A stretch of 64,000 nucleotides of DNA from Escherichia coli (GTDB lineage Bacteria > Pseudomonadota > Gammaproteobacteria > Enterobacterales > Enterobacteriaceae), in assembly GCF_051903065.1 (NCBI RefSeq), contig NZ_CP178438.1. The stretch is one strand, 5' to 3'. The notes below the pieces were generated by a model. That model did not search any database. It had not been told where the DNA came from and saw nothing but the letters and a program-made list of their open reading frames with translations. Numbering within the stretch: position 1 is the stretch's first letter; each line of letters begins with the position of its first letter. A program made the position numbers and the translations under genes. Below are positions 3,151 through 43,060 of the stretch, piece after piece.

Positions 3151-4568
3151 TGAGCCAGTCACTGTTTAGCCAACCATTGAACGTTATTAACGTCGGCATC
3201 GCCATGTTTAGCGATGACCTGAAAAAGCAGCATGTAGAAGTGACTCAACTCGACTGGACGCCGCCGGGGCAGGGCAATATGCAGGTGGTGCAGGCGCTGG
3301 ATAACATTGCCGATTCGCCGCTGGCAGACAAAATCGCCGCCGCTAACCAGCAGGCGCTGGAGCGCATTATCCAGTCGCATCCGGTGCTGATTGGTTTTGA
3401 TCAGGCGATTAACGTGGTGCCGGGCATGACGCCGAAAACCATTCTTCACGCCGGGCCGCCGATCACCTGGGAAAAAATGTGCGGCGCGATGAAAGGCGCG
3501 GTCACCGGAGCGCTGGTGTTCGAAGGACTGGCGAAAGATCTCGACGAGGCGGCTGAACTGGCGGCTTCCGGGGAGATCACCTTCTCGCCGTGTCACGAGC
3601 ACGACTGCGTGGGATCGATGGCGGGTGTTACCTCGGCCTCGATGTTTATGCACATCGTAAAAAACAAAACCTACGGCAACATCGCTTATACCAACATGAG
3701 CGAGCAGATGGCGAAGATTTTGCGTATGGGCGCTAACGACCAGAGCGTGATTGACCGCCTGAACTGGATGCGTGATGTGCAGGGACCAATACTGCGCGAC
3801 GCGATGAAAATTATCGGCGAAATCGATCTGCGCTTAATGCTGGCGCAGGCGCTGCATATGGGCGATGAGTGCCATAACCGCAATAACGCCGGGACGACGC
3901 TGCTGATTCAGGCGCTGACGCCGGGGATTATCCAGGCGGGCTATTCCGTCGCGCAACAGCGCGAAGTGTTTGAGTTTGTCGCCAGCAGCGACTACTTCTC
4001 CGGCCCGACGTGGATGGCGATGTGTAAAGCGGCGATGGATGCGGCGCACGGCATCGAATACAGCACCGTGGTCACCACCATGGCGCGTAACGGCGTCGAG
4101 TTCGGCCTGCGGGTCAGCGGATTACCGGGGCAATGGTTTACCGGTCCGGCGCAGCAGGTCATCGGCCCGATGTTTGCCGGTTATAAGCCGGAAGATTCGG
4201 GGCTGGATATCGGCGATAGCGCCATCACAGAAACCTACGGTATTGGCGGGTTTGCTATGGCGACCGCACCCGCTATCGTCGCGCTGGTGGGCGGCACGGT
4301 GGAAGAGGCTATCGATTTCTCCCGTCAGATGCGCGAAATCACCCTTGGCGAAAACCCCAACGTCACCATTCCGCTGCTCGGTTTTATGGGCGTGCCATCG
4401 GCAATCGACATCACCCGCGTGGGTAGCAGCGGCATTCTGCCAGTGATCAACACCGCCATCGCCCATAAAGATGCGGGCGTCGGCATGATTGGCGCGGGCA
4501 TTGTGCATCCACCTTTTGCCTGCTTCGAGAAAGCCATTCTTGGCTGGTGCGAACGTTACGGCGTCTGA
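3150..4568 (+). CDS. yahG: uncharacterised protein (DUF1116-type), 472 aa
   Basis: 472-aa ORF, start codon overlaps yahF stop (3150); synteny. Confidence 0.8.
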   Translation: MSQSLFSQPLNVINVGIAMFSDDLKKQHVEVTQLDWTPPGQGNMQVVQALDNIADSPLADKIAAANQQALERIIQSHPVLIGFDQAINVVPGMTPKTILHAGPPITWEKMCGAMKGAVTGALVFEGLAKDLDEAAELAASGEITFSPCHEHDCVGSMAGVTSASMFMHIVKNKTYGNIAYTNMSEQMAKILRMGANDQSVIDRLNWMRDVQGPILRDAMKIIGEIDLRLMLAQALHMGDECHNRNNAGTTLLIQALTPGIIQAGYSVAQQREVFEFVASSDYFSGPTWMAMCKAAMDAAHGIEYSTVVTTMARNGVEFGLRVSGLPGQWFTGPAQQVIGPMFAGYKPEDSGLDIGDSAITETYGIGGFAMATAPAIVALVGGTVEEAIDFSRQMREITLGENPNVTIPLLGFMGVPSAIDITRVGSSGILPVINTAIAHKDAGVGMIGAGIVHPPFACFEKAILGWCERYGV

Positions 4569-4581
4569 CCTACATGTTCAT

Positions 4582-5035
4582 GCCGGATGCGGCGTGAACG
4601 CCTTATCCGGCCTACGAATGGCGCAAGAATCTGTAGGCCTGATAAGCGTAGCGCATCAGGCATTTGTCACCATTGCCGGATGCGGCGTGAACGCCTTATC
4701 CGGCCCACGAATGGCACGAGAATCTGTAGGCCTGATAAGCGTAGCGCATCAGGCATTTGTCACCATTGCCGGATGCGGCGTGAACGCCTTATCCGGCCTA
4801 CGAATGGCGCAAGAATTGTAGGCCTGATAAGCGTAGCGCATCAGGCATTTGTCACCATTGCCGGATGCGGCGTGAACGCCTTATCCGGCCCACGAATGGC
4901 ACGAGAATTTGTAGGCCTGATAAGCGTAGCGCATCAGGCATTTGTCACCATTGCCGGATGCGGCGTGAACGCCTTATCCGGCTTACGAGTGGCACGAGAA
5001 TTTGTAGGCCTGATAAGCGTAGCGCATCAGGCAAT
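4582..5035. repeat. REP/BIME tandem array (about 5 units, roughly 94-bp period)
   Basis: Repeated units GCCGGATGCGGCGTGAACGCCTTATCCGGCCTAC ... GTAGGCCTGATAAGCGTAGCGCATCAGGCA read directly; palindromic REP consensus; ORF-track hits inside are artefacts. Confidence 0.9.
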
Positions 5036-9909: not shown

Positions 9910-10321
9910 TTCAGAAAGGGTTCCACCTGAAAGTTGTTATTCCACCAGAGAGTGAATGGCAATGCAGGTAATCATTTCATCTGTATATCTGTATGCCAAC
10001 TGGCATTCCATCTCTTTTTTCGCCGATATTTTGTTGTGATCGGCGACACTTCGCTTAAAAAAGCACCAGCAGTGGTTTCGCAGCTATGCGGTGTATAAAA
10101 AATGATCTCATGCAGATGTTTTGTGAATGTGTGGGTTGACATTCATATGAAAAAAATCATAATTCCATCATGTTTGTGTGGGGTCTTTTCTGTATCTTAC
10201 GCATCGCACTCAAGCCTGACAGAAAATATGCTGTAAGGCTCATATCAAAAACCGCCATTAGCTCATCAGGAAGAGCAGACGACAACCAGGATTGTTGTAT
10301 GGTACGGGGTTCGAGGCCTCG

Positions 10322-10567
10322 ATGGCGGTCCAACTTTTCAAAACTCTTCTGAATCAGATCCCCTTATTATCATCCCTGCAAAGTGGAACATTGCCATTGT
10401 TTGGCTATTCAGGACGGGTCAGACCAATGAAAAAAGCCCACACAGGGGAGAGTGGGCTGAAATGGGAAGCTAAAGACTCAAGTAAACTTATCGGAAATAA
10501 GGACCACGCATTACGGGGGCTATCATCGCCGATGGTCGGGATTCGGCAAATCAGGTTGATTACGTAG
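10322..10567 (+). CDS. yahM: small uncharacterised protein, 81 aa (start taken at MAVQLF)
   Basis: ORF 10292..10567; an internal ATG gives an 81-aa product matching the remembered size of yahM; weak support. Confidence 0.4.
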   Translation: MAVQLFKTLLNQIPLLSSLQSGTLPLFGYSGRVRPMKKAHTGESGLKWEAKDSSKLIGNKDHALRGLSSPMVGIRQIRLIT

Positions 10568-11401: not shown

Positions 11402-11677
11402 ATGAAAATAATCTCTAAAATGTTAGTCGGTGCGTTGGCGTTTGCCGTTACCAATGTCTATGCCGCTGAATTGATGACTAAAGCGGAATTTGAAAAAGTC
11501 GAATCGCAATATGAAAAAATAGGTGATATTTCAACCAGCAATGAAATGTCGACCGCAGACGCGAAAGAGGATTTGATCAAAAAAGCGGATGAAAAAGGGG
11601 CTGATGTGTTGGTACTGACCTCCGGTCAAACTGACAATAAGATCCACGGCACGGCGGATATTTATAAGAAGAAGTAA
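11402..11677 (+). CDS. yahO: small periplasmic protein (DUF1471/YhcN-like), 91 aa
   Basis: Signal peptide [22 protein letters not shown] followed by a short soluble domain. Confidence 0.8.
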
Positions 11678-11706
11678 TTCTGAACCCTATGTAAACATCC
11701 CCGATG

Positions 11707-12763
11707 GGCTTTGTTGAATAAATCGAACTTTTGCTGAGTTGAAGGATCAGATCACGTATCTTCCCGACAACGCAGACCGTTCCGTGGCAAAGCAAAAGTT
11801 CAAAATCACCAACTGGCCCACCTACAATAAAGCCCTCATCAACCGTGGCTCCATAACTTTCTGGCTGGATGATGAAGCTATTCAGGCCTGGTATGAGTCA
11901 GCAACACCTTCTTCACGAGGCAGACCTCAGCGCTATTCTGACCTTGCCATCACGACTGTGCTGGTCATTAAACGCGTATTCAGGCTGACCCTGCGCGCTG
12001 CGCAGGGCTTTATTGATTCCATTTTTTCTCTGATGAACGTTCCGCTACGCTGCCCGGATTACAGCTGTGTCAGCAGGCGGGCAAAGTCGGTTAATGTCAG
12101 TTTCAAAACGCCCACCCGGGGTGAAATCGCACACCTGGTAATTGATTCCACCGGGCTGAAGGTCTTCGGTGAAGGCGAGTGGAAAGTCAAAAAGCATGGC
12201 CAGGAACGCCGCCGTATCTGGCGTAAGCTGCATCTCGCCGTTGACAGTAAAACACATGAAATCATCTGCGCTGACCTGTCGCTGAACAACGTTACGGACT
12301 CAGAGGCCTTCCCCGGGTTAATCCGGCAAACCCACCGGAAAATCAGGTCAGCCGCCGCCGATGGCGCTTACGATACCCGGCTATGTCACGATGAACTGCG
12401 GCGTAAGAAAATCAGCGCGCTTATCCCTCCCCGAAAAGGTGCGGGTTACTGGCCCGGTGAATATGCAGACCGTAACCGTGCAGTGGCTAATCAGCGAATG
12501 ACCGGGAGTAATGCGCGGTGGAAATGGACAACAGATTACAACCGTCGCTCGATAGCGGAAACGGCGATGTACCGGGTAAAACAGCTGTTCGGGGGTTCAC
12601 TGACACTGCGTGACTACGATGGTCAGGTTGCAGAGGCTATGGCCCTGGTACGAGCGCTGAACAAAATGACGAAAGCAGGTATGCCTGAAAGCGTGCGTAT
12701 TGCCTGAAAACACAACCCGCTACGGGGGAGACTTACCCGAAATCTGATTTATTCAACAAAGCC
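11707..12763 (+). mobile_element. IS903-type insertion sequence (IS5 family), 1057 bp, intact
   Basis: 18-bp terminal inverted repeats GGCTTTGTTGAATAAATC (11707..11724) and its reverse complement (12746..12763); flanked by perfect 9-bp direct repeats TCCCCGATG (11698..11706 and 12764..12772); length 1057 bp matches IS903. Confidence 0.9.
11784..12707 (+). CDS. IS903 transposase (about 307 aa if GTG start at 11784; ORF open from 11739)
   Basis: Single long ORF filling the element; left-end DNA matches the remembered Tn903/IS903 end sequence; 307-aa size expected for IS903 transposase. Confidence 0.85.
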   Translation: MAKQKFKITNWPTYNKALINRGSITFWLDDEAIQAWYESATPSSRGRPQRYSDLAITTVLVIKRVFRLTLRAAQGFIDSIFSLMNVPLRCPDYSCVSRRAKSVNVSFKTPTRGEIAHLVIDSTGLKVFGEGEWKVKKHGQERRRIWRKLHLAVDSKTHEIICADLSLNNVTDSEAFPGLIRQTHRKIRSAAADGAYDTRLCHDELRRKKISALIPPRKGAGYWPGEYADRNRAVANQRMTGSNARWKWTTDYNRRSIAETAMYRVKQLFGGSLTLRDYDGQVAEAMALVRALNKMTKAGMPESVRIA

Positions 12764-12840
12764 TCCCCGATGCGTAAGTTTATCGGTGATCATCTATTGA
12801 AATTTATGCCGGATAAAGCGTTCGCGCTGCATTCGGCAGT

Positions 12841-14427
12841 TCAGCTTTTCAGCCGCCGCCAGAACGTCGTCCGGCTGATGCCTAAATAATTCGCCGCTGC
12901 TGTTTTATCGCCATTAAATTTCTCCAGTGCCTGTTGTGGTGTCAGTAAGCGTGGAGCGGGAGTTTTCGCCGACTCGCGCGCCAGTTCCGGCAGTAGCAGC
13001 TGCAAAAATTGCGGCGTTAAATCCGGCGTCGGTTCCACACTTAAAAATAGCGCCAGTCGCTCCATCATATTGCGCAGTTCACGAATATTGCCCGGCCAGT
13101 CGTAGTGCATCAGCACGGTTTCGCTTGCCTGTAATCCCTGGCGTAATGCGGCAGAAAACGGGGCGGAGAGCGCCGCCAGAGACACTTTCAAAAAGCTTTC
13201 CGCCAGCGGAAGAATATCCGCCACCCGCTCGCGGAGTGGTGGCAATTGCAGACGCAAAATACTCAGCCGATAAAACAGATCACGGCGAAAACGTCCTTGC
13301 TGCATATCTTCTTCCAGATTGCAGTGAGTGGCGCTAATGACCCGTACATCTACCGGAACAGGCTGATGCCCGCCGACGCGGGTGACCTCTTTTTCTTCCA
13401 GCACCCGTAACAGGCGAGTCTGCAAAGGTAGCGGCATTTCGCCAATCTCATCCAAAAACAGCGTGCCACCGTGGGCGATTTCAAACAGCCCGGCACGACC
13501 TCCGCGTCGCGAGCCGGTAAACGCCCCTTCCTCATAGCCAAACAGCTCCGCTTCCAGCAGCGATTCGGCAATCGCCCCGCAGTTGACGGCAACAAACGGA
13601 TGCGACTTTTTGCCCTGTCGCGCATCGTGGCGGGCAAAATATTCCCGATGAATTGCCTGGGCCGCCAGCTCTTTGCCCGTCCCCGTTTCCCCCTCAATCA
13701 ACACCGCTGCACTGGAGCGGGCATACAGCAAAATAGTCTGCCGTACTTGTTCCATCTGTGGTGATTGACCGAGCATATCGCCCAGCACGTAACGAGTTCT
13801 CAGGGCGTTGCGGGTGGCATCGTGAGTGTTATGGCGTAACGACATGCGCGTCATATCCAGCGCATCGCTGAACGCCTGGCGCACGGTGGCGGCGGAATAG
13901 ATAAAAATTCCGGTCATTCCGGCTTCTTCTGCCAGATCGGTAATCAGCCCCGCACCGACCACCGCTTCGGTGCCGTTAGCTTTTAGCTCGTTAATCTGCC
14001 CGCGTGCGTCTTCCTCGGTAATGTAGCTACGTTGATCGAGGCGCAAATTAAAGGTTTTTTGAAACGCCACCAGTGCCGGAATAGTTTCCTGATAAGTGAC
14101 AACGCCGATAGAAGAGGTGAGCTTTCCGGCTTTTGCCAGTGCCTGTAACACATCGTAGCCGCTCGGTTTAATCAAAATAACTGGCACTGACAGGCGGCTT
14201 TTCAGGTACGCGCCGTTAGAGCCAGCAGCGATGATGGCGTCACAGCGTTCGTTTGCCAGTTTCTTGCGGATGTAGGTCACTGCTTTTTCAAAGCCAAGCT
14301 GAATAGGGGTAATGTTCGCCAGGTGATCAAACTCGAGGCTGATATCGCGAAACAGCTCGAACAGGCGCGTTACAGATACCGTCCAGATAACCGGTTTGTC
14401 GTCATTCAGCCGTGGTGGATGTGCCAT
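12841..14427 (-). CDS. prpR: sigma-54-dependent propionate regulon activator, about 528 aa (start taken at MAHPPRL)
   Basis: AAA+ sigma54-activator motifs ([21 protein letters not shown]-like [12 protein letters not shown]) and C-terminal HTH; divergent from prpB. Confidence 0.85.
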
Positions 14428-15571: not shown

Positions 15572-15868
15572 TGTATTCGACAACCGATGCCTGATGCGCC
15601 GCTGACGCGACTTATCAGGCCTACGGGGTGTACTGAACTGTAGGTCGGATAAGACGCATGGCGTCGCATCCGACAACCGATGCCTGATGCGTCGCTGACG
15701 CGACTTATCAGGCCTACGGGGTGAACTGAACTGTAGGTCGGATAAGACGCATGGCGTCGCATCCGACAACCGATGCCTGATGCGCCGCTGACGCGGCTTA
15801 TCAGGCCTACGGGGTGTACTGAACTGTAGGTCGGATAAGACGCATGGCGTCGCATCCGACAACAATCT
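15572..15868. repeat. REP/BIME tandem array (3 units, about 92-bp period)
   Basis: Three near-identical units ...GATGCCTGATGCGCCGCTGACGCGACTTATCAGGCCTACGGGGTG-ACTGAACTGTAGGTCGGATAAGACGCATGGCGTCGCATCCGACAAC. Confidence 0.9.
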
Positions 15869-20486: not shown

Positions 20487-21128
20487 ATTGTCGGATGCGT
20501 CGCGTGGCGCATCCGACACCATGCGCAGATGCCTGATGCGACGCTGACGCGTCTTATCATGCCTACAGGCCTGAACCGTAGGTCGGATAAGGCGCTCGCG
20601 CCGCATTCGACACCATGCGCCGATGCCTGATGCGACGCAGGCGCGTCTTATCATACCTACAGGCCTGAACCGTAGGTCGGATAAGGCGCTCGCGCCGCAT
20701 TCGACACCATGCGCCGATGCCTGATGCGACGCAGGCGCGTCTTATCATGCCTACAGGCCTGAACCGTAGGTCGGATAAGGCGCTCGCGCCGCATCCGACA
20801 CCGTGTGCCGATGCCTGATGCGACGCTGGCGCGTCTTATCATGCCTACAGGCCTGAACCGTAGGTCGGATAAGGCGCTCGCGCCGCATCCGACACCGTGC
20901 TCAGTGCCTGATGCGACGCTGATGCGTCTTATCATGCCTACAGGCCTGAACCGTAGGTCGGATAAGGCGCTCGCGCCGCATTCGACACCATGCGCCGATG
21001 CCTGATGCGACGCAGGCGCGTCTTATCATGCCTACAGGCCTGAACCGTAGGTCGGATAAGGCGCTCGCGCCGCATCCGACACCATGCTCAGTTGCCTGAT
21101 ACGACGCTGGCGCGTCTTATCATGCCTA
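20487..21128. repeat. large REP/BIME tandem array (about 6 units, about 640 bp)
   Basis: Repeated palindromic units GATGCCTGATGCGACGC-GGCGCGTCTTATCATGCCTACAGGCCTGAACCGTAGGTCGGATAAGGCGCTCGCGCCGCAT-CGACACC; ORF-track hits inside are artefacts. Confidence 0.9.
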
Positions 21129-42904: not shown

Positions 42905-43060
42905 ACGACTGCCGGATGCGGCGTGAACGCCTTATCCGGCCTACGGGTGGCGTGAGAATTTGTAGGCCTGATAAGACGCGCAAGCGTCGCATCAGGCATC
43001 TGCACACGACTGCCGGATGCGGTAAACGTCTTGTCCGGCCTACATTTCGCCCGTAGGCAG
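42905..43060. repeat. REP/BIME cluster
   Basis: GCCGGATGCGGCGTGAACGCCTTATCCGGCCTAC ... GTAGGCCTGATAAGACGCGCAAGCGTCGCATCAGGCA ... GCCGGATGCGG. Confidence 0.85.

Follow-up and report, generated by a model that had tools for sequence, protein, structure and literature searches.

The window analysed here, a 64-kb stretch of Escherichia coli DNA, contains an intact IS903B that very probably transposed into the spacer between the genes yahO and prpR, in the recent ancestry of a single E. coli clone that has about 20 copies of the element. Judged by sequence comparison, the element is an IS903B isoform, a variant 31 nt off the type sequence, and belongs to the IS903 group of the IS5 family. The insertion is an ordinary copy of IS903B, already annotated and already known. 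It can serve as a clone-specific marker (found in the strain of the window and in two of 5,426 complete genomes), and it adds one more data point on the expansion of IS903B in E. coli chromosomes.

The element is 1057 bp long and contains an uninterrupted transposase ORF (Table 1). Its 18-bp terminal inverted repeats are perfect, the left repeat GGCTTTGTTGAATAAATC being matched by its exact reverse complement at the right end, and the match between the two ends breaks off past base 18. Identical 9-bp direct repeats of TCCCCGATG abut both inverted repeats; for two fixed positions, a chance identity over 9 bp has a probability of 4^-9, or about 4e-6. The two flanking genes are convergent and are separated in the empty allele by a spacer of 97 bp. 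The end of yahO (+ strand), at 11677, leaves 20 bp to the left copy of TCCCCGATG and 29 bp to the IS, and the stop codon of prpR (− strand, 12841–12843) lies 68 bp past the right copy and 77 bp past the IS. The first-pass annotation had described a 1057-bp element with 18-bp inverted repeats, 9-bp direct repeats and an open transposase ORF, located about 20 bp and about 70 bp from two convergent genes, and all of these coordinates, sequences and distances are borne out. Both the length with perfect ends (about 1057 bp, 18 bp) and the 9-bp duplication, of which the empty site holds a single TCCCCGATG, are those of the IS903 group. The G+C content of the element is 52.7%, compared with 53.0% for the window.

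Table 1 Features of the IS903B insertion and its immediate surroundings (window coordinates)
Feature	Coordinates	Strand	Remark
Left copy of the target-site duplication, TCCCCGATG	11698–11706		Identical to 12764–12772
Left inverted repeat (IRL), GGCTTTGTTGAATAAATC	11707–11724	+	18/18 reverse complement of 12746–12763
Complete IS903B-type insertion sequence, 1057 bp	11707–12763	+	100% match to labelled E. coli copies
Fold-back of 11 bp, GAACTTTTGCT/AGCAAAAGTTC	11725–11801	+	Arms (11725–11735, 11791–11801) 100% complementary
Transposase gene, 307 aa	11784–12707	+	GTG at 11784, or 322 aa from in-frame TTG at 11739; stop 12705–12707
Putative mosaic patch, element positions 506–677	12212–12383	+	Differs from all three reference isoforms
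Right inverted repeat (IRR)	12746–12763	−	Perfect inverted repeat of IRL
Right copy of the target-site duplication, TCCCCGATG, also left arm of hairpin H1	12764–12772		
Hairpin H1: TCCCCGATG, loop, TATCGGTGAT	12764–12793		Same stem in the empty-site and occupied-site folds
REP-like hairpin H2, GCCGGATAAAGCGTTCGCGCTGCATTCGGC	12806–12838		Predicted stem in both alleles

A single copy could also belong, as one of its ends, to a larger composite transposon, or be an artefact of assembly. We regard the chance of either as practically negligible, and nothing was found in favour of them. The 18-mer GGCTTTGTTGAATAAATC occurs in the 64-kb window only at the two ends of the element (11707 and 12746), a second IS copy bracketing passenger DNA in the manner of Tn903 is absent within the window, and on both sides lie core genes of E. 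coli, ordinary and in collinear order. An artefact is further contradicted by two independent complete assemblies with the same junctions.

The transposase frame is open from either candidate start to the stop, giving the single long ORF for an IS5-type DDE transposase of about 307 aa that is typical of the IS903 group. Its product scores 357.6 bits against the NCBIfam model NF033579 (transpos_IS5_2; cut-off 140) and matches both Pfam DDE_Tnp_1_5 (PF13737) and DDE_Tnp_1 (PF01609). Residues D121, D193 and E259, which we take to be the catalytic residues reported for IS903, are all present. The identical 307-aa protein is found on at least 1000 contigs, where it is named 'IS5-like element IS903B family transposase'. 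By these matches the transposase is a full-length IS5-family DDE enzyme. The copy may reasonably be taken as still mobile, to which its intact ends and ORF, its identity to the commonest copy and the roughly 20 places in the sister genomes lend indirect support.

Three reference copies were used to name the element. IS102 was taken from pSC101, and IS903B from Tn2680 of Rts1, where this variant (IS903.B) was originally found, located via the coordinates in PMC12670165; the first 50 kb of Rts1 contain no IS903B copy. IS903 was taken from plasmid pJEO5619_Col (NZ_OQ401023.1), which carries a complete Tn903 of 3094 bp with a 980-bp passenger, the figures given for this transposon in PMC12670165. 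Bases 1–79 of that record repeat its last 79 bp, a circularisation overlap, and the apparent length of Tn903 is 3173 bp instead of 3094. The opening 356 bp of its IS903 equal the Tn903-derived fragment in pIS2. pIS2 itself and pRAx were rejected as IS903 references, being engineered constructs with IS903 fragments only, as were pEMT3 and a Vibrio IncP plasmid, engineered constructs without an annotated IS transposase gene.

Compared with the Rts1 copy of IS903B, the element of the window shows differences of 31 nt and 2 aa; against IS903 of Tn903 the figures are 44 nt and 8 aa, and against IS102 they are 78 nt and 14 aa. IS903 and IS102 differ from each other at 60 positions, presumably the number given in the early literature. 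Under the ISfinder rule, isoforms share at least about 95% nucleotide and about 98% amino acid identity with the type copy. IS903B lies within both limits (97.1% and 99.3%). IS903 in the strict sense passes the first limit (95.8%) but falls below the second (97.4%, with 8 of 307 residues different), and IS102 stays below the nucleotide limit (92.6%).

The same 18 terminal bases open IS903, IS903B, IS102 and the element of the window, and 9-bp duplications also flank the reference copies in Rts1 and Tn903. With the Rts1 copy the element shares, in addition to its length, ends and duplication, 305 of 307 transposase residues and the RefSeq label; the two replacements are K156N and S189A (window residue, position, Rts1 residue). 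With the Tn903 copy it has in common the length, ends, size of the duplication, gene layout and positions of the DDE residues, whereas IS903 is much rarer, its left end being matched at 99% or more by 33 of the best 5000 plasmid records. The likeness to IS102 lies in the architecture and the identical terminal repeats.

The element is therefore very unlikely to be IS903 in the strict sense, found at the two ends of Tn903, because IS903B is the nearer of the two. Particularly over the first 505 bp, a single difference separates the element from IS903B and 22 separate it from IS903. Moreover, RefSeq keeps a separate 'IS903 family' label, given to Tn903-type copies, and the many E. coli copies that are 100% identical to the element in DNA are labelled 'IS5-like element IS903B family transposase'. 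The case for IS903 consists of the shared length, ends and duplication, the high DNA identity to the Tn903 copy, and the introduction of IS903B as 'an IS903 variant', the wording of a title cited in PMC12670165. The name IS903 given in the first-pass annotation thus holds at the level of the IS903 group, and is corrected here to IS903B. That annotation had named assignment to a different IS as evidence against its reading; technically IS903B is such an assignment, though it is a close sibling of IS903. As a side observation from the reference copies, aphA1 starts 103 bp downstream of IS903B in Tn2680 of Rts1 and 104 bp downstream of the left IS903 in Tn903, in the same orientation, a hint that the IS–aphA1 junction is the same, or nearly so, in both kanamycin-resistance transposons.

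The differences from IS903B are unevenly distributed. Within a 172-bp patch (element positions 506–677) lie 27 of the 31, and the remaining 885 bp contain only 4. Across the 172 positions of the patch, the element shows 27 differences from IS903B, 20 from IS903 and 29 from IS102, and nearly all of these changes are silent. The patch looks like a recombinant import, and its distance from all three references suggests a fourth IS903-group isoform, other than IS903, IS903B and IS102, as the source. This mosaic is the form common in E. coli. Copies identical to it span E. coli and other Enterobacteriaceae, and the family reaches 47 places per genome.

The distribution of the insertion was surveyed in a set of 5,426 complete genomes of E. 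coli. A query of 400 bp spanning the left junction found an end-to-end match in only two of them, 23CRST027 and 23CRST031. These two come from human faeces in Ecuador, and their chromosomes hold 20 IS903B places each. The window differs from 23CRST027 by one indel and three substitutions over 50 kb; this near-identity indicates that it comes from the same clone, in a different assembly. The empty site was searched for with both flanks rejoined through one TCCCCGATG, a query of 409 bp, and was present in 5,187 of the 5,426 genomes. In ECNB21-M121 and GDSC2227PM it is 100% identical over the whole 409 bp, and in ECNB21-M121 both flanks of the window meet at one 9-mer (positions 3201–3209 of the segment compared). 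The earlier proposal of a recent insertion agrees with these counts, and the single-TCCCCGATG allele that it predicted in relatives exists. From this distribution, the insertion is a recent, clone-specific transposition, neither old nor imported.

In the simplest sequence of events, IS903B would have transposed into the 97-bp spacer after a target cut staggered by 9 bp, as for other members of the IS903 group, followed by gap repair. The staggered cuts and the repair would account for the flanking repeats of TCCCCGATG. The target lies in the left arm of a small hairpin in the spacer, and no gene is disrupted. Transcription from yahO would then enter the IS in the direction of the transposase gene, and the 3' sequence of prpR is the original one.

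The target is compatible with the known preference of IS903, though not a strong match. The published motif is WTTYA-N9-TRAAW (Table 1 of PMC2577343), and the site used, AAACA-N9-CGTAA, agrees with it at 6 of 10 positions, a score reached by 7.8% of the positions in the window.

We also considered a recent jump of the copy into the chromosome from a resistance plasmid, which we judge to be unlikely, though still conceivable. Identical or near-identical copies are plentiful on plasmids: they occur in at least 5000 plasmid records, and 3032 of those listed are from Klebsiella. In addition, a 372-kb plasmid of ECNB21-M121, a close relative with the empty site, bears an identical copy. The family is thus abundant on plasmids, mostly those of Klebsiella, and an association with plasmids had been stated in the first-pass annotation. 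Its further proposal, that the insertion may mark plasmid-to-chromosome traffic, finds no specific support, since E. coli chromosomes commonly carry the element. Of the 5,426 complete genomes, 1,993 (37%) have a match, at up to 47 places per genome, and the chromosomal places outnumber those on plasmids (4,732 versus 2,460). Moreover, about 20 places are already occupied on the sister chromosomes, another chromosomal copy there is 100% identical to that of the window, and as all copies are identical the donor cannot be traced. Given these chromosomal places in the clone, the donor is no less likely to have been chromosomal. The presence of IS903B in an E. coli chromosome is, alone, no evidence of recent plasmid traffic.

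The same copy in 23CRST027 and 23CRST031 is annotated as frameshifted, with CCC in place of the CCCC found at 12310–12313 of the window. Another chromosomal copy in 23CRST031, 100% identical to that of the window, keeps CCCC, which shows that CCC does not reflect a uniform sequencing bias. The shorter run may be either a real inactivating mutation in the sister isolates or a local error in one assembly, and the intact CCCC run of the window could itself be the error.

In 23CRST031, a full IS903B copy identical to that of the window has cydA on one side and a truncated LysR-family gene on the other. Directly before it stands a 47-bp tandem duplicate of the left end, composed of the terminal repeat and the following 29 bp. 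This extra left end could act as an alternative substrate for the transposase.

The empty spacer is predicted to fold into two hairpins, H1 and H2 (z = −2.1). H1 consists of ATCCCCGAT, a loop and ATCGGTGAT, and the duplicated 9 bp form its left arm. H2 is a REP-like palindrome adjoining the prpR stop, left untouched by the insertion; we take it to resemble the REP consensus, and Rfam reports nothing at the locus, H2 scoring below the gathering threshold. A terminator scan of the empty 97-bp spacer predicted no canonical intrinsic terminator with a stem and T-tract, and its hits in the occupied region were not above the shuffled expectation. Between the prpR stop and 12764 the sequence has stayed the same, and the structure predicted on the prpR side does not differ between the two alleles. 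Here prpR keeps both hairpins because the right copy of TCCCCGATG rebuilds the arm of H1. On the opposite side, the sequence following yahO in the occupied allele, where the IS begins 29 bp past the stop, is without significant structure (z = 0.22), and H1 and H2 are moved 1066 bp further downstream. The first-pass annotation had suggested that the terminators of both genes may be displaced. For yahO, now cut off from H1 and H2, such displacement is plausible on the predicted folds, with the hairpins as candidate terminators; for prpR, which retains both, the suggestion falls away.

Within the element, the 11-bp arms GAACTTTTGCT and AGCAAAAGTTC enclose both candidate transposase starts and form the main stem predicted for the first 125 nt. 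The arms are invariant across the four isoforms compared (the window copy, IS903, IS903B and IS102), and since they never vary they give no covariation signal. By analogy with IS10 and IS50, the fold-back might limit the translation of read-in transcripts.

These structures bear on a regulatory role of the insertion, in which loss of the yahO terminator would let yahO transcription drive the transposase, or antisense transcription from the IS into prpR would alter propionate catabolism. The two genes yahO and the transposase gene are co-oriented and only 29 bp apart, and the contrast between the unstructured yahO 3' side of the occupied allele and the two hairpins of the empty spacer agrees with such a role. 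We nevertheless consider it quite improbable: no canonical T-tract terminator is predicted in the empty spacer, the 3' region of prpR is unaltered, the conserved fold-back around the transposase start could blunt the translation of read-in transcripts, and the insertion is limited to one clone. A search of the literature for yahO together with prpR returned nothing relevant to the spacer. It would be a long shot indeed to suppose that the success of the recombinant isoform reflects a functional change and that stationary-phase transcription of yahO feeds the transposase, coupling stress to transposition. A recent, clone-specific transposition of an ordinary IS903B copy is our preferred reading of the locus.

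A second, independent IS903B insertion was observed about 300 bp away, inside prpR of E. coli strain 167 (NZ_CM132952.1). It lies 228 nt upstream of the prpR stop, at a target corresponding to 13069–13077 of the window, and is flanked by a 9-bp duplication of ATTGCGCAG. This copy has the same orientation as that of the window and differs from it by 14 nt. PrpR thereby loses its C-terminal helix-turn-helix, and strain 167 is hence probably unable to induce the prp operon.

Two further features of the window were noted. ARAGORN calls a tRNA-Ser(GGA) at 10252–10332 (+), upstream of yahM and overlapping its start. At the same position Rfam gives no tRNA at its gathering score and the RefSeq annotation contains none, and the call is probably a false positive. 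Intergenic naRNA4 (REP325-type) arrays are located at 4636–4983, 15643–15807, 20675–21126 and 42965–43040, one set of them between prpB and prpC, and these are ordinary E. coli repeats.
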